Part shown: positions 6,549 to 43,939 of the stretch, piece after piece
Layout of the letters: every line of letters starts with the position of its first letter
Numbering within the stretch: position 1 is the stretch's first letter
Source: an uncultured Clostridia bacterium
GTDB lineage: Bacteria > Bacillota > Clostridia > Christensenellales > CAG-917
Direction: 5' to 3'
Assembly (NCBI GenBank): GCA_944360115.1
Contig: CALVTH010000006.1
Coordinates: 1-54,963 of the forward strand
DNA length: 54,963 nucleotides
The notes under the pieces: generated by a model
Database searches by the model: none
What the model was told of the DNA's origin: nothing
What the model saw: the letters and a program-made list of their open reading frames with translations, nothing else
Position numbers and translations under genes: made by a program

Positions 6549-8144
6549 TCACACCTCCTCTGAAGAGCCTTTGCCCTCGGTTTCGGCGGGGATTTCGGCA
6601 GAGGTTTCGGCGGTCTCCGCGGCGGGGAAGTCCGCTCCGTCGGCGGCGGATTTCTCCTCTTCCGTCACGGTCTCGTCCACCACTGCGGGAGTCTCGTCCG
6701 CGGGGACTTCGGACACTTCGCGGCGCTCGATGAGGATTTTTTCGGGGGCGATGTTTATGCCCACGCGGTCGCCTTTCAGCCAGTCGTCGTCGGTGTCCAC
6801 GAAGAAGTCGTAGTAGTCGTCCGTGCGCACTATGCACTGATAGTAGCTGCCCTTGTAAATGGAACTGACCACCGTCGCGCCGATTGTGCCGTCCTCCTCG
6901 TCGTCGGTGATGATGACATCGTCGAAGTCCACCTGAACGCGCACGGGGGTGCCCGCTTCGAGGTCGGTCACGCAGTCGAATTTCGCGCCGCATATCCACA
7001 CCTGATTCTCGCCCGCGATTTCGGTGTCTATTTCGTTGATTATGCGAGCCTTGTGCATGATGTGCAGGTTGGACGGGCTGATGTACAGACCCACATTCGT
7101 GCCTTTCTCGCAGGTGACGGTGTCGTGCGCTATGAATTCGTTTTCGTTCGCGATGAGGGTGATCTGATAGTGGTCGCCCTTGAAAACGGAAGAGATAACG
7201 CGCGCGGTGAGGATGGCTTTCTTGTCGCCCGCGGGCAGGATTTCGAGGTCCTCGGGACGGATTATGACATCGATGGGCTCGTTTTTCTTGAAGCCCTTGT
7301 CCACGCACTCGAACACCGCGTCGGCAAATTCCACCTTGTAATCCTCGAGCATTACGCCCGAAAGTATGGTGGATTCGCCGATGAAGTCGGCGACGAAAGC
7401 GTTGGCGGGCTCGTCGTATATCTTTTCGGGGTCGGCAATCTGCTGAATGACGCCGTCGCGCATAACCACGATTTTGTCGCTCATAGTGAGGGCCTCTTCC
7501 TGGTCGTGTGTGACATACACGAAGGTGATGCCCAGTTCGCGGTGCATATTCATCAGTTCAAGCTGCATATCCTTGCGCATCTTGAGGTCGAGCGCGCCGA
7601 GAGGTTCGTCGAGGAGCAGCACTTCGGGCTCGTTGACAAGCGCGCGGGCGATTGCGACGCGCTGCTGTTGTCCGCCCGAGAGAGAGGACACGCCCCTGTA
7701 ACCGTAATCCTCGAGGTCGACCATTTTGAGCACGCGGTCGACTTTTTCCTTGATTTCGGCTTTGGTGTATTTGCGGTACAGCTGCACGGTCTCGCCCTTG
7801 CGGTTGACCTTGGTGCCGTTGGGTATGGTCTTGAGTTTGAGACCGAAGGCTATGTTGTTGAAAACATTGAGGTGAGGGAAAAGGGCGTAACGCTGGAACA
7901 CCGTATTCACCTTGCGCAGGTGCGGAGGGGTGTCCGTTATGTCCTTGCCGTCGAAGATAATCCTTCCCGAGGTGGGCATTTCGAAGCCCGCTATCATACG
8001 GAGCGTCGTCGTTTTGCCGCAGCCCGAAGGTCCGAGCAGGGTGACGAATTCGCCGCGCCTGATGTTGAGGCTGGCGTTCTTGACGGCGTCCTTGCCGCCG
8101 TAGGTCTTGGTCAGATTTCTGAGTTCGATGATGTTGTCTGCCAT
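6549..8144 (-). CDS. potA: Spermidine/putrescine ABC transporter ATPase with duplicated C-terminal TOBE module
   Basis: GPSGCGKT, LSGGQQQR, LLDEPLGALD; start MADNII after AAGGAG. Confidence 0.92.
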   Translation of the reverse strand: MADNIIELRNLTKTYGGKDAVKNASLNIRRGEFVTLLGPSGCGKTTTLRMIAGFEMPTSGRIIFDGKDITDTPPHLRKVNTVFQRYALFPHLNVFNNIAFGLKLKTIPNGTKVNRKGETVQLYRKYTKAEIKEKVDRVLKMVDLEDYGYRGVSSLSGGQQQRVAIARALVNEPEVLLLDEPLGALDLKMRKDMQLELMNMHRELGITFVYVTHDQEEALTMSDKIVVMRDGVIQQIADPEKIYDEPANAFVADFIGESTILSGVMLEDYKVEFADAVFECVDKGFKKNEPIDVIIRPEDLEILPAGDKKAILTARVISSVFKGDHYQITLIANENEFIAHDTVTCEKGTNVGLYISPSNLHIMHKARIINEIDTEIAGENQVWICGAKFDCVTDLEAGTPVRVQVDFDDVIITDDEEDGTIGATVVSSIYKGSYYQCIVRTDDYYDFFVDTDDDWLKGDRVGINIAPEKILIERREVSEVPADETPAVVDETVTEEEKSAADGADFPAAETAETSAEIPAETEGKGSSEEV

Positions 8145-8155
8145 TTTCTCTCTCC

Positions 8156-8689
8156 TTAAAAAGTGGGGGGTGACGCAACCCAAAGCACCACGGCGGTCTC
8201 CGCGGTGCGGTTTTCGAGGTAATGAACTTTGTTGCTTTCGTAATAGAAAGCGTCGCCTTTATGCGCGACAAACTCTTTTTTGCCGATGTGCAGTACGACG
8301 GCGCCCGCGAGTACGAAGCCGAATTCCTCGCCCTCGTGGGGCATGTCCTTGTCGAGCGCGCAGTGCGGAGCCAGCTCGAGTTTTATGGGCTCCATTTCGT
8401 TTTTCTGGCTGTTGGGCACCAGCCATGTTATGGTGTGAGTGTCGGTGACCTTCTCGAAAAAGTCGTCGGGCGAAAACACCACCTGCTCCTCTTCGTCCAC
8501 GGAGAAAAACTCCGCGGCGGTTGTGCCCAGCGCGGACAGCACATCCAGCAGAGTCTGAATGGACGGGGAAGTCAGTTCGTTTTCGAGTTGGGAAATATAA
8601 CCTTTCGTAAGTTCGCAGCGGTCGGCAAGTTCTTCCTGCGTCAGCCCGCATTGCAAGCGAAGGCGTTTTATCTTCGCGCCAAGTTCCAT
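8156..8689 (-). CDS. puuR: XRE-family HTH + cupin transcriptional regulator (PuuR-like)
   Basis: LTQEELADRCELTKGYISQLEN HTH; HEGEEFGFVL cupin; first gene of the pot operon. Confidence 0.8.
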   Translation of the reverse strand: MELGAKIKRLRLQCGLTQEELADRCELTKGYISQLENELTSPSIQTLLDVLSALGTTAAEFFSVDEEEQVVFSPDDFFEKVTDTHTITWLVPNSQKNEMEPIKLELAPHCALDKDMPHEGEEFGFVLAGAVVLHIGKKEFVAHKGDAFYYESNKVHYLENRTAETAVVLWVASPPTF

Positions 8690-8866
8690 AGCCCCTCCCG
8701 CTCCGCGCCCGTTCCCGCTCCCGCACGCCCGTGCGCCCTTAATATCGACGGGCGAGCACGCATACACGCGAGGACCTGTGCGGTTTAGCAAAAATTTACT
8801 TTCGGTTTACAAGGTTCAAAGATTGTAATCCCAAAGTTTAGAATTGCTAAACCGAAAGTGATACCA

Positions 8867-8895: not shown

Positions 8896-9206
8896 CGATA
8901 TGAGCACATATTGTCCGACAAATTTCGTCACGGCAAGCGGAACGGCTTTCGGGGGATGAAAACGGGGCGATGCGGCGGGGGGAACGGGCATGGGAAAAAG
9001 GACAAACAAAAAACCTCCCCGAGGGGAGGTGACACGGCAAATTTTATATTATGTACGCCGCCTCCGTCAACAATTTTTTTGAAAAAAACGCGATTTTTTT
9101 TTGTGGAAAACCGTCGGCGATTTTTTGCGGAAAATTTTGAAAAATGCGTTGACAGCAGGGCTTGACGGTTGTATTCTGCTGCCATATTTTTTGCGGGAGG
9201 CAGGAT

Positions 9207-9785
9207 ATGTACAGGGCGTTGTTGCTCACGGAACACACAGACGAACTTGCCCGCACGCTCCGCGGCGTCGGGATAGATTGCCTCCCCCTTCAAGCGACGG
9301 CGCAAGGGGGCAGAGAGTCCGCCCCTTCGGCGGACTTCGTCGTTATTGAGGGGGCTTTCGGCGAGGACGCAGACGAACTGGCGCTGGGTTACGCCCGCGT
9401 GACCGACGCTGTCGTCGTCTTTTTGCACGACGGCAATCTTTCGGACGGCGAGAGGCGGAATCTTATGTGCGGCGGGGTTTGCCTGCTGGACGAAGCGGCG
9501 GACGAGTCCGTCAAAGCGGTGTTTTTCCGTCATCTCGTCATCATCAGGAAACATTATCTCGAACTCAAGCGGCAGAACGAACTCCTGCGCGGCAAGGTTA
9601 TGGAAGCCAACGCCGTCGGGCGCGCGAAGTGCCTGCTGGTCGAGAGACGCAGCATGAGCGAAAATTCCGCTCACCGTTTCATAGAAAAGACGGCCATGGA
9701 CAACCGTCTCACGCGTTACGCCGTGGCGAACAACATCATTTTGAACTATGCGAAGAAAGACGACACAGACAGTATTGGTGCTTGA
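9207..9785 (+). CDS. ANTAR-domain RNA-binding antiterminator with a degenerate receiver domain (AmiR/NasT/NitR-like)
   Basis: C-terminal VGRAKCLLVERRSMSENSAHRFIEKTAMDNRLTRYAVANNII is an ANTAR signature; GGAGG RBS; upstream TTGACG-N17-TATTTT. Confidence 0.88.
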   Translation: MYRALLLTEHTDELARTLRGVGIDCLPLQATAQGGRESAPSADFVVIEGAFGEDADELALGYARVTDAVVVFLHDGNLSDGERRNLMCGGVCLLDEAADESVKAVFFRHLVIIRKHYLELKRQNELLRGKVMEANAVGRAKCLLVERRSMSENSAHRFIEKTAMDNRLTRYAVANNIILNYAKKDDTDSIGA

Positions 9786-11280
9786 CTTCGGCGGGCAGTA
9801 CAAGGAACTCATCGCCCGCGCCGTAAGGCGGTGCAGGGTTCATTCCCTCGTGCTTTCGGGGTCCACTCCCGTCGAGAAAATCGCGCAATACAACCCCGTC
9901 GGCATTATCCTCACGGGCGGGCCGCACAGCGTGTATGCGCAGGGGTCGCCCCGCGTATCGGCGGAGGTGCTGTCACTCGGAGTGCCCGTCCTCGGGATAT
10001 GCTACGGTATGCAGACCATGTGCCACACGGCGGGCGGCGCGGTGTCGTCGTGCGCGGTGTCGGAGTACGGCACGACGCAGGTGCGGGCGGTCGCCGACAG
10101 CCCGCTGTTCGCGGGGGTGGCAATGCCGCTTTCCGCACTGATGAGCCACACCGACTATGTGTCGCGCGTGCCCGAGGGATTCAGGGTGACCGCAGTCACC
10201 GACGACTGTCCGGCGGCGGCGGTGGAGTGCCGCGAGCGCAACCTCTACGGCGTGCAGTTCCACCCCGAAGTGGAGCGCACCCGCGGCGGCATGAAAATAA
10301 TACGCAATTTCCTTTACGGCGTGTGCGGCGCAAAGGGCGACTACACCCTCGACGCCTACATCGAAAACGAAGTGGAGAGAATACGCGCGCAGGTCGGCGG
10401 CGGACGGGCGGTGCTCGGGCTGTCGGGCGGAGTGGACTCCGCGGTTGCCGCGGCGTTGCTCGAAAGGGCGATTCCCGACAGACTGACCTGCATTTTCGTC
10501 GACCACGGCATGATGAGAAAGAACGAGGGCGAGACGGTGCGGCGCGTGTTCGGAGCGCGTTCTCTCGACCTTGTGGCGGTGGACGCGGGCGCCAGATTCC
10601 TGGCAAGGCTGAAAGGCGTCACCGACCCCGAGTCCAAACGCAAGATAATCGGCGAGGAATTCGTCAGGGTGTTCGAGGAAGAGAGCGCGAAATTCGGCGG
10701 CAGTTTCCTTGCGCAGGGCACGATATATCCTGATGTCATCGAGAGCGGCGCGGACAACGGAGCGACCATAAAATCTCATCACAATGTGGGCGGACTGCCC
10801 AAGGACAGCAAATTCGTCGGTCTGGTGGAGCCTCTCCGCGGACTGTTCAAGGACGAGGTGCGCGGGATAGGCAGAATGCTCGGACTGCCCGAGGAAATCG
10901 TGGGCAGACAGCCTTTCCCGGGGCCGGGATTGTCGGTGAGGTGTCTCGGCGAAATCACCGAAGAGAAGCTGGACATACTCCGCGAAGCCGACGCGATATT
11001 CCGCGAGGAAGTGGACGCGCGGCGCACCCGCCCCGACCAGTATTTCGCGGTGCTCACCGACTCCCGCAGCGTGGGGGTGACGGGCGACTTCAGGACATAC
11101 GGATATGTCGTAGCGCTCCGCGCGGTCAGCACTTCGGACTTCATGACCTGCGAGTGCGTCAGACTGCCGTACACTCTTCTCGACAGGGTGGCAAAGAGGA
11201 TTATCAACGAAGTGGACGGTGTGGGCAGAGTGGTCTACGATGTCACGGGCAAGCCCCCTGCCACAATCGAATGGGAATGA
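9748..11280 (+). CDS. guaA: GMP synthase (glutamine-hydrolysing)
   Basis: VLDFGGQY, GICYGMQ, QFHPEV, LSGGVDS, IKSHHNVGG, KPPATIEWE. Confidence 0.96.
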   Translation: MRRKTTQTVLVLDFGGQYKELIARAVRRCRVHSLVLSGSTPVEKIAQYNPVGIILTGGPHSVYAQGSPRVSAEVLSLGVPVLGICYGMQTMCHTAGGAVSSCAVSEYGTTQVRAVADSPLFAGVAMPLSALMSHTDYVSRVPEGFRVTAVTDDCPAAAVECRERNLYGVQFHPEVERTRGGMKIIRNFLYGVCGAKGDYTLDAYIENEVERIRAQVGGGRAVLGLSGGVDSAVAAALLERAIPDRLTCIFVDHGMMRKNEGETVRRVFGARSLDLVAVDAGARFLARLKGVTDPESKRKIIGEEFVRVFEEESAKFGGSFLAQGTIYPDVIESGADNGATIKSHHNVGGLPKDSKFVGLVEPLRGLFKDEVRGIGRMLGLPEEIVGRQPFPGPGLSVRCLGEITEEKLDILREADAIFREEVDARRTRPDQYFAVLTDSRSVGVTGDFRTYGYVVALRAVSTSDFMTCECVRLPYTLLDRVAKRIINEVDGVGRVVYDVTGKPPATIEWE

Positions 11281-11295
11281 CCGCCCTGCGGCGCG

Positions 11296-13113
<1,818 letters not shown>

Positions 13114-13376
13114 CGGGCAATATCGGATGGGCAATCTCCGAGGGCGGCGCGGTCGAACGACGGGCGGCTCGTCGGACGGAGAAGTCCGATTGGCGGGCGG
13201 AAACCGCAAAAACAGGCAAAATTCCTTTCCGCGGAGGGTGCGCTCGGCGTAGAGCGCGGCAAGGGAGGCAGAAAGGCGCGAATAAATGCGAAAACGGGTT
13301 TTACCGCGCCTAATACGACATTAAAACGGCAGTTCAGCCGAGAAGCCCCGCACGGGGCGCAGATACGGAGTCAGTT

Positions 13377-14963
13377 ATGTGTACGGTTATGGTTTATACG
13401 GGACGGGATATGTCCGTCGACACTTTCGGAAAGGCTTTCGCCGCCACCCGCTCGCGTGGTCCCGACGGCGAGAGAATAATCACCCTGCCGCGCGGCGGCA
13501 TTATGGGGTTTCAGCGGCTGTCCATAATGGGGCTTACCGCAAGCGGTATGCAACCTTTCGAACTGGACGGCAACTATGCGGTGTGCAACGGCGAGCTGTA
13601 CGGGTTCAGACCCGTCAAAGCCGAACTCGAGCGCAAGGGTTACCGCTTCGCAAGCGACAGCGATTGCGAAATAATCCTGCCCCTCTACAAGGAATACGGC
13701 ACGGATATGTTCGCCCGTCTGGACGCCGAGTACGCCATGGTCATCTACGACGCCGAGAAGGACGATTTCGTGGCTTCGCGCGATCCGATAGGCATCCGTC
13801 CTCTTTTCTACGGTTATTCCGAAAGCGGTAAAATCGTTTTCGCCTCCGAAGCCAAAAACCTCGTCGATCTCGTCGACGAAGTCAGGGCTTTTCCGCCGGG
13901 GTGCTATTACGCCGAAGGGCAGTTCCGCCGCTACTGCGACATCGCCGCCGTGGAAAAATATTCCGACGACGGCATTGATGAGGTCACCCGTAAAATACGC
14001 GAGAAATTGGTGCGCGGCATAGAGAAAAAGCTGGATTCCGACGCACCCGTGGGATTCCTGCTGTCGGGAGGGCTGGACAGCAGTCTGGTGTGCGCGGTCT
14101 CGGCGCGGTTGCTCGGAAAGCCGATACGCACTTTCGCAATCGGAATGAACACTGACGCAATCGATCTCAAGTATGCGAAAGAAGTCGCCGATTACATCGG
14201 CAGCGAACACACCGAAGTCATCTTCGACCGCGACACCGTGATCGGCGGGCTGGAGGAAGTGATAGCCGCACTCGGCACCTACGACATAACGACCGTACGC
14301 GCCAGCATGGGGATGTATTTCGTGTGCAAATACATTCACGAGCACACCGATGTCAGGGTGTTGCTCACGGGCGAAATTTCCGACGAGCTTTTCGGCTACA
14401 AGTACACCGACTTTGCGCCCTCGCCCGAGGAATTCCAGAAGGAAGCGGCGAAGCGCGTGCGCGAGCTGTATATGTACGATGTGCTCCGCGCCGACAGGTG
14501 CATTTCCGTCAACAGCATGGAGGCGCGCGTACCGTTCGGAGACCTCGACTTCGTCAGGTATGTGATGAGCGTGAACCCCGCGCTCAAGATGAATGTTTAC
14601 GGTAAAGGCAAGTATCTTCTGCGCAAGGCGTTCGAGGGCGATCTGCTCCCCGACGACATTCTGTGGAGAGAGAAAGCGGCGTTCTCGGACGCGGTCGGGC
14701 ACTCCATGGTGGATTATCTGAAGGAATACGCCGAGAGCCTTTACACCGACGGGGAATTCGAGGAGCGGCGGGCGAAATTCGACTTTGCGCGCCCGTTCAC
14801 CAAGGAGAGCCTGCTTTACCGTGAACTGTTCGAGAAACATTATCCGCGCACGGCAAAGAGCATTGTCGGATTCTGGATGCCGAACCGCGAGTGGGAAGGG
14901 TGCAAGGACGCCAACGACCCGTCGGCGCGTGTGCTGTCCAACTACGGCGCGAGCGGCGAGTGA
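13377..14963 (+). CDS. asnB: Asparagine synthetase B (glutamine-hydrolysing)
   Basis: N-terminal Cys (MC), RGPD, CNGELY, LLSGGLDSS, TGEISDELFG, EARVPF. Confidence 0.93.
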   Translation: MCTVMVYTGRDMSVDTFGKAFAATRSRGPDGERIITLPRGGIMGFQRLSIMGLTASGMQPFELDGNYAVCNGELYGFRPVKAELERKGYRFASDSDCEIILPLYKEYGTDMFARLDAEYAMVIYDAEKDDFVASRDPIGIRPLFYGYSESGKIVFASEAKNLVDLVDEVRAFPPGCYYAEGQFRRYCDIAAVEKYSDDGIDEVTRKIREKLVRGIEKKLDSDAPVGFLLSGGLDSSLVCAVSARLLGKPIRTFAIGMNTDAIDLKYAKEVADYIGSEHTEVIFDRDTVIGGLEEVIAALGTYDITTVRASMGMYFVCKYIHEHTDVRVLLTGEISDELFGYKYTDFAPSPEEFQKEAAKRVRELYMYDVLRADRCISVNSMEARVPFGDLDFVRYVMSVNPALKMNVYGKGKYLLRKAFEGDLLPDDILWREKAAFSDAVGHSMVDYLKEYAESLYTDGEFEERRAKFDFARPFTKESLLYRELFEKHYPRTAKSIVGFWMPNREWEGCKDANDPSARVLSNYGASGE

Positions 14964-14996
14964 CGCAAAACCCGCGGGAAGCGGAAAGGAGAAATC

Positions 14997-15899
14997 ATGA
15001 AATTCGTGAAGATGAACGGTTGCGGCAACGATTATGTCTATTTCGACCTGAGGGGCGAGCGTGACCCCGAGGGCGCGGCGAACGCGGTCATACCGCACAT
15101 CGTGCGCATAAGCGACAGACACTTCGGAGTGGGCGGCGACGGCGTCGTGCTGGTCATGCCGAGCGCGGTCGCCGATGTGCGTATGCGTATGTTCAATGCC
15201 GACGGCAGCGAAGGAAAGATGTGCGGCAACGCCGTCAGGTGCGTGTGCAAAATCGTGTGCGACGGTGAGGAGGAAAAGCCCGCGGTCGTCACGGTGGAGA
15301 CGGCGAGCGGCATAAAGACGATAACTCCCGCCTACGGCGCGGACGGCAAGGTGACGGGAGCCGCCGTCAATATGGGCGCGCCCGTGCTGGCGGCGGAGCT
15401 GGTGCCCGTGGATATTGCGTACGCTTCCGCGGACGCGCTCTTCTGCGAGGGCGAAGGCGGGGAGAGGATTGCAAAGCGGTTGCCCGTCGAAACTGCGAGC
15501 GGCGGAAAGGTGTGCGGCACGGCGGTGAGCATGGGCAATCCGCACTTCGTCGTGTTCGCCGACGACGACCCCGCGGACATAGATGTGGCGGCAATCGGCG
15601 CGGAGATAGAAAATATGCCGCTTTTCCCCGAGAGGGTGAATGTGGAGTTCGTGAAACCCTGCGGGGACGGCGTGTACAAAATGCGCGTATGGGAGCGCGG
15701 CAGCGGCGAGACCTTGGCGTGCGGCACGGGCAGCTGCGCCGCGGCGGTCGCCGCGCGGATGTGCGGACTGCAACCGCGCGCGGACGGAATATACGAAATC
15801 CGTCTGCTCGGCGGCACGCTGTACATCGGCGTTACCGACGACGGCGTGATTATGACGGGCAACGCCGAAAAGAATTTCGAAGGAGAGGTGGAGATATGA
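14997..15899 (+). CDS. dapF: Diaminopimelate epimerase
   Basis: KMNGCGNDY, MCGN, SMGNPH, VWERGSGETLACGTG. Confidence 0.94.
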   Translation: MKFVKMNGCGNDYVYFDLRGERDPEGAANAVIPHIVRISDRHFGVGGDGVVLVMPSAVADVRMRMFNADGSEGKMCGNAVRCVCKIVCDGEEEKPAVVTVETASGIKTITPAYGADGKVTGAAVNMGAPVLAAELVPVDIAYASADALFCEGEGGERIAKRLPVETASGGKVCGTAVSMGNPHFVVFADDDPADIDVAAIGAEIENMPLFPERVNVEFVKPCGDGVYKMRVWERGSGETLACGTGSCAAAVAARMCGLQPRADGIYEIRLLGGTLYIGVTDDGVIMTGNAEKNFEGEVEI

Positions 15900-17083
15900 A
15901 ACTCAACGAAAATTTCGCCGCGCTGGGCGGCAGTTATCTGTTCGGAAAAATCGCCGCGCGGGTCAGGCAGTTCGCGGCGGAGAATCCCGATGCCGATGTC
16001 GTCAGCCTGGGGATAGGCGATGTCACCCGTCCGTTGACCCCCGCCGTGGTGTGCGCAATGCACGCCGCCGTCGCCGAAATGGCGTACGAGGAGACCTTCC
16101 GCGGTTACGGACCCGAACGGGGCTACGATTTTCTGAGACGGCGCATTGCGGAATATTACGCGGGGAGAGGAGTCTCGGTATCGCCTTCGGAGATTTTCGT
16201 GGGCGACGGCGCAAAGAGCGACATCGGCAATTTCCTCGACCTTTTCGGAAAGAGTCGCGTGCTTATGCCCGACCCCGTCTATCCCGCCTATTTCGATGTC
16301 AATGTGATGAGCGGCAACAAGGTGGCTTTCGCGGGAGGCAACAGGCGCAACGGTTTCCGTCCTCTTCCGCCCTCGCGCGGGGATTACGACATAATCTACA
16401 TCTGTTCGCCCAACAACCCGACGGGCGCGGTGTACACCAAGGACGAACTGAAAAGGTGGGTGGACTACGCCCGCGCGACGGGCGCGGTGATTTTCTTCGA
16501 CGCGGCGTACGAATGTTATGTGCGCGACGCGTCCCTGCCGAGGAGCATATTCGAGGTGGAGGGCGCCAGACAGTGCGCCGTGGAATTCTGCTCGCTGTCC
16601 AAGACTGCTGGATTCACGGGTCTGCGTTGCGGCTATACCGTGGTGCCCGAGGAACTGGCGGGCGGCAGGATTGCCGAGATGTGGGAAAGACGGCAGGCCA
16701 CGAAATTCAACGGAGTGTCCTATGTCGTGCAGAGAGCGGCGGAAGCCGTATTCACCCCGCAGGGACTTGCGGAAAACGCGAAAAACAACGACTATTATCT
16801 CCGCAACGCCCGCGCCATGCACGGTATGCTGGAGTCGGCGGGAGTGTGGCATACGGGCGGGGAGAACTCGCCGTATATATGGATGCAATGTCCGCGGGGC
16901 ATAACCTCGTGGGAATACTTCGACCTGTTGCTCGAAAGGGCGAATGTCGTGGGCACGCCGGGGGCGGGCTTCGGTAAAAACGGCGAGGGCTACTTCCGCC
17001 TGACGGCTTTCGGCAACGACGAAAAGACGGTGCGGGCAATGGAAAGGCTGTGCGAAGTCACCCGTGCGGCGATGAGAAAATGA
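15896..17083 (+). CDS. dapL: LL-diaminopimelate aminotransferase
   Basis: SLGIGDVTRP, GYGPERGY, DGAKSD, CSPNNPTG, SLSKTAGFTGLRCG; ATGA overlap with dapF. Confidence 0.92.
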   Translation: MKLNENFAALGGSYLFGKIAARVRQFAAENPDADVVSLGIGDVTRPLTPAVVCAMHAAVAEMAYEETFRGYGPERGYDFLRRRIAEYYAGRGVSVSPSEIFVGDGAKSDIGNFLDLFGKSRVLMPDPVYPAYFDVNVMSGNKVAFAGGNRRNGFRPLPPSRGDYDIIYICSPNNPTGAVYTKDELKRWVDYARATGAVIFFDAAYECYVRDASLPRSIFEVEGARQCAVEFCSLSKTAGFTGLRCGYTVVPEELAGGRIAEMWERRQATKFNGVSYVVQRAAEAVFTPQGLAENAKNNDYYLRNARAMHGMLESAGVWHTGGENSPYIWMQCPRGITSWEYFDLLLERANVVGTPGAGFGKNGEGYFRLTAFGNDEKTVRAMERLCEVTRAAMRK

Positions 17084-17145: not shown

Positions 17146-17200
17146 AAACAGCCGTTTACCGACGGATTCGTCACGGTAGACGGCTGTTTCTGTGTTTTTC
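17146..17200 (+). terminator. Intrinsic terminator between the convergent dapL and sufBD genes
   Basis: aaacagccgtttaccg...cggtagacggctgttt inverted repeat followed by a T-rich run. Confidence 0.65.
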
Positions 17201-38787: not shown

Positions 38788-40869
38788 TCAGTTGACGGAG
38801 AAGAGCAGGTCGTCGTAGGTGGGGAACGGCCAGTATTTCTTTGCGGTCAGCGTTTCCATTTCGTCGGCGACTTTGCGCAGGGCGTTCATCGCGGGGATGA
38901 CTTTGTCGCGGCAGGCTTTGCCGTAGCGTTCGACGGTCTTTTCCCTGCGCGCCTTGCCGACGGCTTCTCGGAGTGCGGCGAGTTTCGCGGCGGCGTCGGC
39001 ATAGAGGGCTTCGAGCTTTGCGAGAAGTTCGGCGTGCGACGCGGCGTCGACGCCCGCGGCGGCGAGGGCTTTCACCGTCCCCGCAATCTCCTTTTCATAG
39101 GTGGTGACGGCGGGCAGAATGTCCTTGGACGCCATATCGATCATGGTGTCCGCTTCGATCGTGATGAGTTTGCTGTAGTTCTCGATCTGGATTTCCTTGC
39201 GCGCTCTGATTTCCTCGGCGGAGTACACGCCGTGTTTCTCGAAGAGGGCGATGTTCTCGGGGGAGTCGAGGTAGGCGAGGCAGTCCATAGTGGTGGGCAG
39301 GTTGTACAGCCCGCGTTTCTTGGCTTCCCTGACCCACTCGTCGGAGTAGTTGTTGCCGTTGAAAATGATTCTGCCGTGTTCCTTCATCACGCGGCGGATG
39401 ATGTCCTGTATGCACGCCTTCTGGTCGTCGGCTTTTTCCAGTTCGTCGGCGAAATCGGAGAACTCGTCGGCGATTATGGTGTTGAGCACGGTGTTGGGGC
39501 CGGCAATGGAGAAGGCCGAGCCCAACATCCTGAACTCGAACTTGTTGCCCGTGAAAGCCAGCGGTGAAGTGCGGTTTCTGTCCGTTGTGTCCATTGGGAA
39601 CTTGGGCAGGACATGCACTCCGATTTCCACTTCGCAGTCGGCGCGTTTGGAATAGGTCCTGCCGTCGGCTATCGCTTGCAGTATGCCCGTCAGTTCGTCG
39701 CCGAGGAATATGCTGACGATTGCGGGGGGCGCTTCGTTGGCGCCGAGACGGTGGTCGTTGCCCGCGCTTGCCACGCTTATGCGCAGCAAATCCTGATGTT
39801 TGTCCACGGCGGCAATCATCGCCGCCATGATGAGCAGGAATTGCGCGTTGTCGGCGGGACTCTTGCCCGGCTCGAAGAGGTTGTGCCCGAAGTTGGTCGT
39901 CAGCGACCAGTTGTTGTGTTTGCCGCTGCCGTTGACTCCCGCGAAGGGTTTTTCGTGGAGCAGGCAGGTCATGCCGTGACGGGCGGCGACCTTTTTCATG
40001 ATCTCCATCGTCATCTGGTTCTGGTCGGTGGCGACATTGACTGTGGTGTAGATGGGGGCTATTTCATGCTGCGCGGGGGCCACTTCGTTGTGCTTGGTTT
40101 TAGCCAGCACGCCGAGTTTCCACAGTTCCTCGTCGAGGTCGCGCATGAAGGCGGCGACGCGGGGCTTGATTGCGCCGAAATAGTGGTCCTCGAGTTCCTG
40201 TCCCTTGGGGGGCTTGGCTCCGAAAAGCGTCCTGCCCGTGAAGATGAGGTCGCGGCGTTTGAGGAAAGCGCCCGTGTCGATGAGGAAATATTCCTGCTCG
40301 GGTCCGACGGAGGACAGCACCTTTTCCGTTTTTCTGCCGAAGAGTCGGAGCAGACGGACTGCCTGTTTGCTGACGGCTTCCATGGAGCGGAGAAGAGGAG
40401 TCTTTTTGTCGAGGGCGTGCCCGTTGTAACTGCAGAACGCCGTGGGGATGCACAGCGTCGCGTCCTTGATGAAGGCGTAGGAAGTGGGATCCCACGCGGT
40501 GTAGCCGCGCGCTTCGAATGTGGCGCGCAGACCGCCGCTGGGGAAGGAGCTGGCGTCGGGCTCGCCTTTGATGAGTTCCTTGCCGTTGAACTCCATGATC
40601 ACGCCGCCGTTGCCGTCGGGAGTGATGAAGGAGTCGTGCTTCTCGGCGGACAGACCCGTCATGGGCTGGAACCAGTGAGTAAAGTGAGTGACGCCTTTTT
40701 CGACTGCCCAGTCCTTCATGGCGCCGGCTATGACATTGGCGACTTCGAGGGAGAGGGGACGGTCCTTTTCGCAACACTCTTTGAACTCGTTGTAGGTGCT
40801 TTCGGGCAGGCGCTCGCGCATTACGGCGTCGTTGAAAACCATACTGCCGAAAATTTCGGACATTACCAT
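38788..40869 (-). CDS. glnA: Glutamine synthetase type III
   Basis: [74 protein letters not shown]; 693 aa. Confidence 0.95.
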
Positions 40870-40990
40870 AGGGGACTCCTTTCCGCGTGTGCGGTATAAT
40901 AATATTAAACGAATCGCGCGGACTTTGCAAGGATTTGAGTCCGTTTCGGACTCTTTTCCGCGCCGTCCGGACGCACTTTCCGCGGGCGGA

Positions 40991-41071
40991 GCAAAAGAAG
41001 AGACGCCTTCCCGCGGGAAAGCGCCTTTGCTTCTTGCGACAGATTATATGCGCGGCACCGTCGGTTGTCAA
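40991..41071 (-). promoter_or_regulatory. glnA promoter plus putative ANTAR hairpin/terminator attenuator
   Basis: TTGACA-N17-TATAAT (41071-41043); aagc-AAAGGC-gctt (41032-41019) overlaps stem gcgctttcc-cgcg-ggaaggcgt (41024-41003), followed by ctcttcttttg. Confidence 0.72.
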
Positions 41072-41081
41072 GGAAATTCGT

Positions 41082-41192
41082 TTGACAAAATGCGGCTTTT
41101 TTGTTATATTTTTCGCGTGATACAAGGAAGTGTTCGTTTGTTTTTTTTTACCGCTTCGGGCGGTGAAAAAGGAAATGGACACTTTTTGTTTT
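41082..41192 (+). promoter_or_regulatory. purB promoter plus putative ANTAR hairpin/terminator attenuator
   Basis: TTGACA-N17-TATATT (41082-41110); gatac-AAGGAA-gtgtt (41119-41134) overlaps terminator arm aagtgttcgttt (41128-41139), which pairs with aaatggacactt (41173-41184), followed by tttgtttt. Confidence 0.7.
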
Positions 41193-41202
41193 GGAGGTAG
41201 TG

Positions 41203-42633
41203 ATGGACACCTATGTTTCCCCTCTTTCCGAGCGTTACGCCGGCGAGAAAATGAAGCGCATATTCTCCCCCGACTTCAAGTTCACCACTTGGCGCAAACT
41301 GTGGGTAGCCCTCGCAGAAGCCGAACAGGAACTGGGCATCGGCATTTCCGACGAACAGCTGGACGAACTTCGTGCGCATATCGACGACATCGACTACGAC
41401 TTCGCCGCTGCACGCGAGAAAGAGGTGCGGCACGATGTCATGGCGCATGTCCTCACCTACGGGGAGAGGTGCCCCAAAGCCAAACCCATAATCCACCTCG
41501 GCGCGACCTCGTGCTATGTCGGCGACAACACCGACATCATTCAGATGAAAGAGGGGCTGTTGCAGGTGCGCTCGCTGTTGCTCGCCGCAATCAGCGCCAC
41601 CGCCGATTTCGCCGAGAAATACAAGGACCGGCCCACGCTGGCGTTCACGCACTATCAGCCCGCTCAGCCCACCACCGTCGGCAAACGCGCTTCGCTGTGG
41701 CTCAACGACCTCGTCAGCGACTTCCGCGACCTCGAGTACCGTCTTTCGTCGCTCAGACTGCTCGGGTGCAAAGGCACCACGGGTACGGCGGCGAGTTTCC
41801 TCGAACTGTTCGGGGGCGACCACGAAAAGGTCAAACGGCTGGACAAGCTCATCGCCGAAAAAATGGGATTTGCCGACACCGTGCCCGTCAGCGGTCAGAC
41901 CTATTCCCGCAAGACCGATTACAATGTGCTCACGGTGCTCTGCGGCATTGCCCAGACGGCGGCGAAATTCTCCAACGACATCCGCCTGCTGTCCAACCTC
42001 AAGGAAGCCGAAGAGCCTTTCGAGAGCAAGCAGATAGGTTCGTCCGCAATGGCGTACAAGCGCAACCCCATGAGAAGCGAAAGGATTGCGTCACTCGCGC
42101 GTTACATCATGTGCAACAGCCTCAATCCCGCGTTCACGGCGGCGACTCAGTGGTTCGAGCGCACCCTCGACGACAGCGCGAACAAACGCATTTCCGTGCC
42201 CGAGGCGTTCCTCGCCACCGACGCCATACTGTCGCTGTATGTCAACATAATCAAGGGGCTGAAAATCTATCCGAGAATCATCGAACGCGACCTCAACCGC
42301 GAGCTACCTTTCATGGCGACGGAGAACATTCTCATGTATTGCGTCAAGGAAAAGGGCGGCGACAGGCAGGAATTGCACGAGGCAATTCGCCGTCATTCCG
42401 TGGCGGCGGCGGCGGTCATAAAGGAAGAGGGTGGCGAAAATGACCTTTTCGCACGGATACTCGCCGACCCCGTTTTCGGGCTTACCCGCAAGGAACTCGA
42501 CGACATAGTCGATGTCAGGCAGTTTGTCGGCAGGGCGCCCGAGCAGACCGAGGAATTCCTCGACGAGGTGGTGCGCCCCTTGCTCGCCGCCAACAAATTC
42601 GACGCTTCCGCGCCGTCCGAAATCAAAGTCTGA
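41203..42633 (+). CDS. purB: Adenylosuccinate lyase
   Basis: SPLSERY, RHDVMAH, IHLGATSC, FTHYQPAQ, GSSAMAYKRNP. Confidence 0.96.
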   Translation: MDTYVSPLSERYAGEKMKRIFSPDFKFTTWRKLWVALAEAEQELGIGISDEQLDELRAHIDDIDYDFAAAREKEVRHDVMAHVLTYGERCPKAKPIIHLGATSCYVGDNTDIIQMKEGLLQVRSLLLAAISATADFAEKYKDRPTLAFTHYQPAQPTTVGKRASLWLNDLVSDFRDLEYRLSSLRLLGCKGTTGTAASFLELFGGDHEKVKRLDKLIAEKMGFADTVPVSGQTYSRKTDYNVLTVLCGIAQTAAKFSNDIRLLSNLKEAEEPFESKQIGSSAMAYKRNPMRSERIASLARYIMCNSLNPAFTAATQWFERTLDDSANKRISVPEAFLATDAILSLYVNIIKGLKIYPRIIERDLNRELPFMATENILMYCVKEKGGDRQELHEAIRRHSVAAAAVIKEEGGENDLFARILADPVFGLTRKELDDIVDVRQFVGRAPEQTEEFLDEVVRPLLAANKFDASAPSEIKV

Positions 42634-42667: not shown

Positions 42668-43939
42668 ATGCTTACAGCAATCGTCGGTATCAACTGGGGG
42701 GACGAGGGCAAAGGTCGTATGGTCGACCTGCTCTCGGAGCGGCAGGACATAATTGTCCGCTATCAGGGCGGCAACAATGCCGGACACACCGTCATGAACG
42801 ACAACGGCAAATTCGTCCTCAACCTTTTGCCGTCCGGCATACTCCGCGCCGACAAGGTCAATGTCATGGGCGGCGGTATGGTGGTGGATGTCGAGCACCT
42901 GTATAAGGAAGTGGGCAGACTGCGCGACGCCGGCGTCTCCATAAGCCCCGACAATCTCGTCATCAGCGACCGCGCGGTGATATGCTTCCCGTTCAATGTG
43001 ATGCAGGACTGCCTCGAAGAGGACAGGCTTGGCGACAGGAAATTCGGCTCGACCCGCCGCGGCATTGCTCCCATTTACGCCGACAAGTATATGAAGAAAG
43101 CCGTCAGAATGGGCGACCTGCTCGACGAAAAATATCTCGAGGAAAGGCTCGCCGAGGTGCTGGACTGGAAAAATATGTGCCTGTCCGCATACAATGGCGC
43201 AAAGCGGTACACCGTCGCCGAGATGAAAGAGTGGCTGGACAAGTACGCGTCCGCCTTTTTGCCCTATATCAAGGACGCGGGCAGATATCTCTCGGACGCG
43301 GCGGCAAGCGGCAAACGCATTATGCTCGAAGCGCAGCTCGGCGCGCTCCGCGACATCGACTTCGGCATTTATCCCTACACATCGTCGTCCAACACGATAG
43401 CCGCGTACGCTCCCGTCGGAGCGGGCGTTCCCAACCTGAAAGTGGACAGGACGGTGGGTATCATGAAAGCCTATTCCACCTGCGTGGGCGAAGGACCTTT
43501 CACCGCCGAGATGTTCGGCGAGGCGGCTTCGCAGCTGCGCGAAGCGGGCGGAGAATACGGCGCGGCGACGGGCAGACCCAGAAGGGTGGGCGGCTTCGAC
43601 GCGGTGGCTTCCCGTTACGGTTGTCGCGTGCAGGGCGCGGACACCGTCGCCCTCACCAAACTGGATGTCCTCGACTATATGGACAAAATCCCCGTGGTGG
43701 ACGCCTACGAAATCGACGGCGAACTCGTCGGCGACTTCCCCTTCGGCGAGAGGCTCGTCAAGGCAAAGCCCCATATTGTATGGTTCGACGGCTGGAAGGC
43801 TCCCACCACCGCCTGCCGCAAATTCTCCGACCTGCCCGTCAAGGCGCAGGAGTATGTGCGGTATATAGAAAAGGTGACGGAGTGCCCCATAGGCTATGTC
43901 TCCGTCGGCGCGGAACGCGACAGCATAATCGTCATGTAA
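42668..43939 (+). CDS. purA: Adenylosuccinate synthetase
   Basis: WGDEGKG, GGNNAGHT, EYGAATGRPRRVG, LTKLDVL. Confidence 0.96.
   Translation: MLTAIVGINWGDEGKGRMVDLLSERQDIIVRYQGGNNAGHTVMNDNGKFVLNLLPSGILRADKVNVMGGGMVVDVEHLYKEVGRLRDAGVSISPDNLVISDRAVICFPFNVMQDCLEEDRLGDRKFGSTRRGIAPIYADKYMKKAVRMGDLLDEKYLEERLAEVLDWKNMCLSAYNGAKRYTVAEMKEWLDKYASAFLPYIKDAGRYLSDAAASGKRIMLEAQLGALRDIDFGIYPYTSSSNTIAAYAPVGAGVPNLKVDRTVGIMKAYSTCVGEGPFTAEMFGEAASQLREAGGEYGAATGRPRRVGGFDAVASRYGCRVQGADTVALTKLDVLDYMDKIPVVDAYEIDGELVGDFPFGERLVKAKPHIVWFDGWKAPTTACRKFSDLPVKAQEYVRYIEKVTECPIGYVSVGAERDSIIVM

Follow-up and report, generated by a model that had tools for sequence, protein, structure and literature searches.

A predicted ANTAR antitermination switch on single hexaloop hairpins in the glnA and pyrG leaders of an uncultured Clostridia bacterium

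We analysed a stretch of DNA of 54,963 nucleotides (the window; contig C6) from the genome of an uncultured Clostridia bacterium (1.49 Mb, 57.7% G+C, 95% complete), which carries a candidate RNA switch made up of an ANTAR-domain regulator and hairpins in the leaders of glnA and pyrG. This genome is called G000 below, other G numbers are genomes of relatives and L numbers are fetched loci. The regulator gene (9207..9785, plus strand, 192 aa) is followed on the same strand by guaA, encoding the glutamine-hydrolysing GMP synthase (9748..11280, overlapping the end of the ANTAR gene), pyrG (11500-13113), asnB (13377-14963), dapF (14997-15899) and dapL, encoding LL-diaminopimelate (LL-DAP) aminotransferase (15902-17083). 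A first-pass annotation made from the letters alone had already placed an ANTAR gene at the head of these five genes, and this was borne out by database matches: all six products have Pfam matches (to the ANTAR domain for the regulator, to the class I/II aminotransferases for DapL), AsnB scores above its NCBIfam cut-off, and DapL matches NCBIfam TIGR03542 with 505 bits against a cut-off of 365. The operon ends in a hairpin with a T-rich tail (17147..17200, plus strand), as read from the sequence; a simple terminator scan lists a part of it (17168-17183). The order ANTAR-guaA-pyrG-asnB-dapF-dapL is complete in 8 of the 11 same-genus loci that were fetched, and the remaining three are cut by contig ends.

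The second locus lies about 30 kb downstream, where glnA for a type III glutamine synthetase (GS-III; 38788..40869, minus strand) stands back to back with purB (41203-42633) and purA (42668-43939) on the plus strand. PurB scores above its NCBIfam cut-off and the gene call for purA was borne out by a family match. Neither a second GS gene nor a PII gene was found in G000, in which glnA is the sole GS gene, and both were set aside as partners of the regulator for that reason.

Two overlapping promoter-like sites, TTGACA-17-TATTCT (10 of 12 matches) and TTGACG-17-TATTTT (9 of 12), precede the ANTAR and guaA genes at 9149..9190 on the plus strand, and on reading the sequence the leader of about 20 nt that follows them has neither a hairpin nor a terminator. 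Because guaA lies upstream of the attenuator, on the attenuator-free promoter that it has in common with the ANTAR gene, it would not be under the switch in G000. The attenuator itself is found in the 219-nt spacer between guaA and pyrG (11281-11499, plus strand), in which a simple promoter scan gave no promoter-like site. The spacer holds two hairpins with hexanucleotide loops: P1 (GCGCGC-AAGGAA-GCGCGC, 11296..11313, -11.1 kcal/mol) and, 49 nt further on, the putative antiterminator P2 (AAAGCAC-AAAGGC-GCGCTTT, 11363..11382, -3.3 kcal/mol, with one A.C mismatch). The leader terminator follows at 11374..11423, with a stem of 13-16 bp, a folding energy of -28 kcal/mol and the tail TTCCCGTTTTTT; its 5' arm, GCGCGCTTTATCC, is formed by the 3' arm of P2 together with the 3' half of the P2 loop. 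The leader folds better than its shuffled versions (z -3.9). In one of four RNA-library runs from gut samples (X1), a contig of 855 nt spans positions 10837-11691, running from guaA across the terminator into pyrG, and further contigs bridge pyrG and asnB as well as asnB and dapF. These runs are stored as contigs, whose depth, ends, strand and coverage gaps are uninformative on termination; the bridging contigs are compatible with a single transcript and with read-through.

The glnA leader is built similarly. A distal promoter with 12 of 12 matches (TTGACA-17-TATAAT, 41043..41071, minus strand) is followed 9 nt after its -10 box by the candidate antiterminator hairpin GAAGC-AAAGGC-GCTTT (41018..41033, minus strand, -3.3 kcal/mol), and at this distance there is no room for a P1. 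The hairpin overlaps a terminator of 11 bp (40991..41026, minus strand, -17.1 kcal/mol, tail CTTCTTTTGC), which was listed by the simple scan, and the leader as a whole again folds better than shuffles (z -4.1). Between the attenuator and the start of glnA we also read a proximal promoter-like site, TTGCAA-17-TAATAT (40902..40930, minus strand). This site is conserved in the genus and lies downstream of the attenuator, therefore glnA would have an attenuated distal and an unattenuated proximal promoter. The four hexaloop hairpins listed in the first-pass annotation, at 11296, 11363, 41019 (minus strand) and 41119, the last of them in the purB leader, were all found to be present. Its claim that in the pyrG, glnA and purB leaders one such hairpin overlaps the 5' arm of an intrinsic terminator also agrees with what we saw in all three, the rival structures of -28, -17.1 and -31 kcal/mol each being accompanied by a U-rich tract.

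Hairpins of this kind are common in a single genome. In G000 an A..G.. hexaloop is found on 1602 hairpins with stems of 5 bp or more, among them 17 with the loop AAAGGC and 17 with AAGGAA. A strict descriptor scan returned 46 rows, corresponding to 24 places, from which the pyrG element was absent owing to its mismatch and bulge; a loose descriptor scan was of no use (197 hits), and a scan for C-G-closed A..G.. hexaloops overlapping a terminator-like hairpin gave 72 places. Beyond the three leaders, none of these 72 had, on inspection, both an AANGRC loop and a clean terminator; no further member of the regulon was thus found in G000, which is a weak negative. A covariance model of the single hairpin would, with its 20 nt or so, be too poor in information to search 3 Mb. 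A search of the whole window against Rfam 15, which includes the glutamine riboswitch and T-box families, had at gathering scores as its sole match a tetrahydrofolate (THF) riboswitch (RF01831, 31444-31541, plus strand, 64 bits against a gathering score of 36), and in the leader regions the matches at E ≤ 10 were sub-threshold chance matches that did not fit. Since single hairpins are common in G000 and Rfam offers no match, the case rests on comparison with relatives.

In the pyrG leader, P2 and the terminator are present in 11 of the 12 same-genus species with a readable leader, G007 being the exception. Across the genus the terminator is 99.3% paired and four of its pairs have changed on both sides, which none of 500 shuffles reached; P2 is 92% paired and has one compensatory pair (UA to CG), which changed in step with its partner column in the terminator. 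G4 of the loop is kept in 11/11 species and A1 in 9/11, and as in the glnA leader the loop is closed by C-G throughout. P1 occurs only in G000 and its nearest relative G014, where the loop AACGAG keeps A1 and G4 and the distance to P2 is about 56 nt; the spacers of these two genomes have diverged save for two islands, one being P1 and the other P2 with the terminator. In the glnA leader, hairpin and terminator were found in 13 of 14 same-genus species (all except G003). Pairing in P2 is 88% here and three pairs show changes on both sides, a result reached by 2 of 500 shuffles; A1, G4, C6 and the closing C-G pair are kept in 13/13, and loop positions 3 and 5 covary with the terminator positions they pair with. 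Across the genus the distance from the -10 box to the start of the hairpin is 8-35 nt and, where there is room for an extra hairpin upstream, that hairpin has a tetraloop; a second hexaloop was not found in the glnA leaders of the 14 genus species. By this comparison it is the conservation in relatives, rather than any count in a single genome, that lifts the pyrG and glnA elements above chance.

Elsewhere in the family the pyrG leaders vary, and pyrG often adjoins the ANTAR gene or guaA. One sister genus has a homologous terminator in all three readable pyrG leaders and the hexaloop in one of them, while other genera have no spacer, and in six genomes of three further genera the pyrG leader has its own promoter and a different attenuator with U- and A-runs. 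At six sister-genus loci (L096, L097, L102, L104, L105 and L106) we noted such an own promoter with a T-run at the predicted start, CTGTTTTTTGA, and a terminator whose 5' arm is GGCGTTTTTCTTTTT and whose 3' arm has some nine A residues, after which come CGCC and a T-run; judged by sequence, these leaders look like reiterative-transcription attenuators working on U/A runs, unlike the poly-G of B. subtilis. A separate observation concerns a repeat element with GCAGGCAATAGT(T/A)TACATATTGGCAAG, which is inserted in regulatory spacers of three members of the genus: in the pyrG leader (L033), downstream of guaA (L034 and L076) and in the glnA leader (L041). In one of these members it is present as several tandem units of about 150 nt each.

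The ANTAR domain of the regulator covers residues 127-178 (46 bits against the Pfam PF03861 cut-off of 27.3, E 4.4e-12; 48.5 bits in the whole-genome search), and in a Pfam search of the whole of G000 this protein was the sole ANTAR match. The domain is C-terminal and is preceded by an N-terminal pseudo-receiver and a helical linker. Eleven orthologues could be aligned over their full length, their ANTAR helices being nearly invariant, and the profile of these sequences matched Rv1626 over residues 16-179 (E 5.8e-8) and AmiR (E 5.6e-6); AmiR (PDB 1qo0) was also the top PDB match of a search with the single sequence. Pfam gave no match to the Response_reg domain at E ≤ 0.001, and the likeness of the N-terminal part to a receiver fold comes from the profile match to Rv1626. 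The phospho-acceptor position in the DLVIMD segment of Rv1626 aligns with a column of valine or glutamine in the family. The protein accordingly does not fall among the REC-ANTAR proteins, in which, as in EutV, Rv1626 and GnfR, the receiver has a phospho-acceptor aspartate, and control by a kinase is therefore unlikely. It is probably an orphan pseudo-receiver ANTAR antiterminator, AmiR-like in its build and kin to the glnA-adjacent ANTAR genes of other Clostridia. Relatives were found in genome contigs by a query with the alignment, whereas the query with the single protein found none. Three members of the genus without an ANTAR match (G003, G008 and G013) are also without a pyrG match, so the locus is probably unassembled in them and they are uninformative on co-occurrence.

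Gene order in a wider circle of relatives brings the two loci of the window together. In G010 and G005 a single locus comprises glnA3, then divergently purB-purA, and then ANTAR-guaA-pyrG-asnB-dapF, and in other families GS-III is divergent to an operon with the ANTAR gene, usually preceded by a type I GS gene (GS-I). The ANTAR gene stands directly behind a short GS-I gene in 10 of 13 out-of-genus loci (L063 and L067-L075; nine were scanned and L073 is inferred from its near-identical layout to L072). The genes that follow the out-of-genus ANTAR gene include pyrG (L067), purF and carA (L063), guaA (L064-L066) and gdhA (L071, L072 and L074 by scan, L073 by layout). Both the GS-III unit, which is sometimes asnA-glnA3, and the GS-I/ANTAR unit start in the same way, with TTGACA-17-TAnAnT and, 8-14 nt past the -10 box, a hairpin of 4-7 bp with an AANGRC loop that overlaps a terminator. 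These lineages, with the ANTAR gene beside GS-III and in one operon with GS-I, pyrG, guaA or purF and carA, give backing to the earlier suggestion that the regulator ties glutamine synthesis to the consumers of glutamine. Loci L124, L133 and L131 (the second GS-III copy of G020) have two hexaloop/terminator attenuators in tandem in one leader.

Similarly, motif and regulator tend to occur together. Among 22 out-of-genus relatives with GS-III, the motif lies near GS-III in 11 of the 13 with an ANTAR gene and in 1 of the 9 without, the sequence examined, with both strands counted, being 95 kb for the former and 34 kb for the latter. In our own tally over 201 genomes of the order, the exact pattern CAGCAANGRCGCTG was present in 43 of 103 genomes with and in 18 of 98 without an ANTAR gene, and 23 genomes have a match and the ANTAR gene on one contig at a distance of 5.5-9.2 kb.

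From the genes, the anatomy of the leader RNAs, the way these are conserved and covary, the fact that motif and ANTAR gene are linked in several families, and a Geobacter binding site that matches the loop and is described below, we infer binding by this protein, termination at the U-tracts and a nitrogen signal. At a rough probability of 70%, the protein is a pseudo-receiver ANTAR antiterminator which acts on single hexaloop hairpins of two units, glnA and pyrG-asnB-dapF-dapL. The regulator would be made together with GuaA from their own unregulated promoter. In its active form it would bind a single hexaloop hairpin in the nascent RNA, recognised by a closing C-G pair and the loop A-A/G-N-G-R-C. 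At about -3 kcal/mol this hairpin is predicted to be weak by itself; the terminator, whose 5' arm consists of the hairpin's 3' arm together with the 3' half of the loop, is strong (-17 to -28 kcal/mol). With -3.3 kcal/mol against -28 and -17.1 kcal/mol in the window, P2 would need help to compete; once bound, it would block formation of the terminator, so that RNA polymerase reads through. In the first unit, the GS-III glnA transcript from the distal promoter, the hairpin would stand at the very 5' end of the RNA, and in the second the operon-internal leader between guaA and pyrG would gate pyrG-asnB-dapF-dapL. The protein most likely responds to glutamine or nitrogen status in some form and, as its receiver is without a phospho-acceptor, would sense it directly or through a protein partner.

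Several points weigh against this reading. CTP synthase is normally indispensable, therefore a switch before pyrG must be leaky or mostly on. A mismatch in P2 of the pyrG leader is present in 4 of 11 species, G000 included, G010 and G005 have G at position 1 of the loop, and the pyrG terminator, with its interrupted tail TTCCCGTTTTTT, was missed by the simple terminator scan. Positions 3-6 of the hexaloop are also constrained by pairing in the terminator. G007 has an ANTAR gene and a pyrG leader without P2 and terminator, and its glnA P2 has only 3 bp. Conversely G037 (97% complete) has no ANTAR match and carries the hairpin acagc-AAAGAC-gctgt with a terminator before asnA-glnA3 (L120, L139); the neighbours of asnA-glnA3 in this genome are a C39-like peptidase, NAD synthase and an ABC ATPase, with no regulator among them. 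The order-wide pattern test is crude, as a reversed control pattern matches 23 of the 201 genomes; five CAGCAANGRCGCTG places, from four genomes without ANTAR, were inspected, of which four proved to be chance matches within coding sequence and one, in G037, a real attenuator. Related genomes are not independent samples and no probability is therefore given for the co-occurrence. The RNA-library contig across the pyrG terminator could stem from DNA. Finally, lengthening of the linker between its two hairpins abolished antitermination by EutV (PMC3369931; PMC8934654), and the hairpin here is single or lies 49 nt from P1.

A wider regulon has to be considered as well, since the first-pass annotation proposed one switch for GS-III, PyrG, AsnB, the DAP pathway and also PurA/PurB. 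The glnA and pyrG leaders with their conserved pairs of hexaloop and terminator agree with this proposal; the purB-purA leader fits it poorly. Downstream of a promoter with 11 of 12 matches (TTGACA-17-TATATT, 41082..41110, plus strand), back to back with the glnA promoter, lies the hairpin GATAC-AAGGAA-GTGTT (41119..41134, plus strand), which has the closing C-G pair, A1 and G4 and overlaps the 5' arm of a long hairpin (41125..41196, plus strand, -31 kcal/mol) followed by a U-tract, TTTTTGTTTT, just before the ribosome-binding site. The leader folds better than shuffles (z -4.7), and a terminator-like hairpin is present in 13 of 14 leaders of the genus, with the outer arms GTGTTCG and GGAC(A/G)C and the U-run conserved and the inside varying freely. 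The expectation that hexaloops are conserved in orthologous leaders, which held for pyrG (11/12) and glnA (13/14), failed here: the hexaloop recurs in 4 of 14 species (AAGGAA in G000, G014 and G011, GAGGAA in G010), and 9 of the 10 leaders with no equivalent of it still hold the terminator-like hairpin. The stem in G000 has 5 bp, two of them G.U pairs, and only -1.5 kcal/mol, which makes it a doubtful member of the regulon; loop position 6 is A, where every conserved example has C, and in most of nine other species an upstream purB hairpin is clear of the terminator arm, as far as could be read from the sequence. The hairpin does lie about 13 nt past the -10 box, which is the position of the attenuator 'gatgaac-AAAGGC-gttcatt' at the head of ANTAR operons divergent from GS-III, so it may descend from that attenuator. 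In G010 and G005 purB-purA is flanked by glnA and the ANTAR gene, but in these genomes a terminator closes purB-purA and a separate promoter serves the ANTAR gene. We regard the purB-purA leader as a probable conserved attenuator whose hexaloop in G000 may be a remnant of the ANTAR-operon attenuator of other families or a weak third target; that it is such a target, with AMP synthesis switched together with glnA and pyrG, seems rather doubtful.

It is unlikely that the leader terminators are real but independent of the ANTAR protein. They would then be constitutive partial terminators, setting the ratio of guaA to pyrG and damping the distal glnA promoter, or they would be opened by another RNA-binding factor or by a metabolite. 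The missing dual hairpin, the weakness of P2 and its imperfection in some species, the element of G037 in a genome with no detectable ANTAR gene, the loss of the pyrG element in G007 despite its ANTAR gene and the second glnA promoter downstream of the attenuator all fit such an explanation. In a constitutive terminator, however, an upstream arm that is conserved and covaries with the segment common to both hairpins would have no role, and A1, G4 and the closing C-G pair would not be expected to persist in two unlinked leaders and across families. The physical linkage of motif and ANTAR gene in 23 genomes and the agreement of the core with the GnfR site also speak against it. As for another factor or a metabolite, no Rfam family fits, and to our knowledge a hairpin of 16-20 nt is below the size of known metabolite aptamers. 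CsrA was considered as a binder of GGA-containing loops and rejected: no CsrA gene was found, there being no PF02599 match in G000, while control genomes did match.

It is highly improbable that the pyrG leader is a CTP-sensitive attenuator of the B. subtilis type, in which low CTP leads to extra G residues at the transcript start that form an antiterminator against a leader terminator (PMC7039003), since the window has no promoter-like site between guaA and pyrG and hence no initially transcribed homopolymeric run, the terminator 5' arm is not a pyrimidine tract and the conserved P2 arm is present instead, even though pyrG of B. subtilis has a leader terminator and the features of the sister-genus leaders (a promoter of their own, a run of T where transcription is predicted to start and a run of A in an arm of the terminator) point in that direction.

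One more leader terminator was seen in the window, away from the two units. On the minus strand at 9070-9000, a promoter-like TTGACG-18-TAAAAT is directly followed by the hairpin ACCTCCCC-TCGG-GGAGGT and TTTTTG, ahead of genes for a PuuR-like HTH regulator (8159-8791) and a potA-like polyamine ABC ATPase (6552-8183). It has no hexaloop and no visible antiterminator.

If the ANTAR protein acts on glnA and pyrG as proposed, a group of abundant uncultured gut Clostridia would set the levels of CTP synthase, asparagine synthase and the DAP pathway by the RNA switch of glutamine synthetase, which would be a simple way to apportion scarce glutamine in a genome of 1.5 Mb in which only one GS gene was found and PII was not. 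There would be a whole clade of single-hairpin ANTAR targets, and covariance models of dual hairpins would miss them, so ANTAR regulons of Clostridia would probably be under-counted. A protein of 192 aa and a hairpin of 16-20 nt would also be a compact natural system in which the single hexaloop could be tested as the minimal ANTAR site (PMC8934654). More tentatively, and as something we hold possible rather than probable, an orphan pseudo-receiver ANTAR protein may be the main nitrogen regulator of gut Clostridia that have no PII, governing a 'glutamine economy' regulon. Single hexaloop antiterminators near the 5' end would couple the supply of glutamine (GS-III, and GS-I in relatives) to the amount of its large consumers (CTP synthase and asparagine synthase here, PurF, CarA and GuaA in relatives) and to DAP/lysine synthesis for the cell wall, and the signal would be read with no phosphorylation, perhaps by binding of glutamine synthetase or glutamine. 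Antitermination on single hairpins would in that case need no hand-over from a P1 such as EutV requires.

Among known systems, one close in gene order is the glnA-nitR pair of solvent-producing clostridia, in which a small ANTAR protein is encoded directly after the type I GS gene. Ten of the 13 out-of-genus loci have this arrangement, whereas in the genus of G000 the GS-I gene is gone and the ANTAR gene, with its own promoter, heads guaA-pyrG-asnB-dapF-dapL. Close in the build of the protein is AmiR, which AmiC, an amide sensor from its own operon, keeps inactive. AmiR of Pseudomonas aeruginosa (PDB 1qo0) likewise consists of a pseudo-receiver, a coiled-coil linker and an ANTAR domain, and an A-H motif in the ANTAR helix is common to both proteins, but its targets are different and no AmiC-like partner gene adjoins the ANTAR gene in the window.

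The canonical target, the eutP leader bound by EutV in Enterococcus faecalis, consists of two hairpins with A1/G4 hexaloops and a spacing of 5-12 nt, P2 overlapping the terminator (Ramesh 2012, PMC3369931), and a linker of 2-25 nt has served as the criterion for tandem hexaloops elsewhere (PMC8164766). The leaders described here resemble it in the A1/G4 hexaloop (glnA 13/13; pyrG G4 11/11 and A1 9/11; the 15 out-of-genus examples all AANGRC or AAAGGT), in the terminator-proximal hairpin, whose 3' arm is the 5' arm of the terminator, and in nitrogen-related targets. They differ in that EutV needs both hairpins, whereas there is one here, often at the very 5' end of the transcript, or a P1 at 49 nt (G000) and about 56 nt (G014) in place of a closely spaced tandem. 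The EutV dimer contacts one hexaloop at a time and the minimal site has been redefined as a single hexaloop, yet antitermination by EutV still required both hairpins at the correct spacing (Walshe 2022, PMC8934654).

GnfR of Geobacter sulfurreducens is close in its binding site. In gel shifts this REC-ANTAR protein binds RNA with the conserved site CAGGCAANGGCGCC, which overlaps the leader terminators of nitrogen genes (Ueki and Lovley 2010, PMC2995071). The core of that site, C-AANGGC-G, equals the loop and closing pair found here, and C-AAAGGC-G is present in both the pyrG and the glnA leader of G000. GnfK/GnfR and the present system thus have in common an ANTAR regulator, targets in nitrogen assimilation and a site upstream of and overlapping leader terminators. 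GnfR, however, is a true response regulator activated by the kinase GnfK, while the protein described here has no phospho-acceptor and no kinase is implied, and the Geobacter targets are nif, glnK and amtB, as against GS-III glnA and pyrG. With the B. subtilis pyrG system the leader has the gene and a terminator in common, but here the putative antiterminator is a templated hexaloop hairpin inside an operon.

Most of the ANTAR targets predicted in the 2012 survey precede nitrogen genes, and its Table S2 mentions glutamine synthetase 25 times and asparagine synthase 7 times (Ramesh 2012, PMC3369931); ANTAR control of glnA and asnB is thus already predicted there. Its tables have no CTP synthase, pyrG, GMP synthase, adenylosuccinate, purine, pyrimidine, carbamoyl or diaminopimelate entry, and a whole-word search of a literature library gave no paper pairing 'ANTAR' with 'CTP synthase'. 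That ANTAR proteins antiterminate nitrogen genes is established, which cannot be said of an extension to nucleotide synthesis; pyrG and the DAP genes as targets, and the connection with glutamine amidotransferases, seem to be new. What sets the predicted system apart from its known counterparts is the single and often 5'-terminal hairpin, the operon-internal site before pyrG, the orphan pseudo-receiver and a regulator gene that is recurrently found among genes for glutamine amidotransferases.

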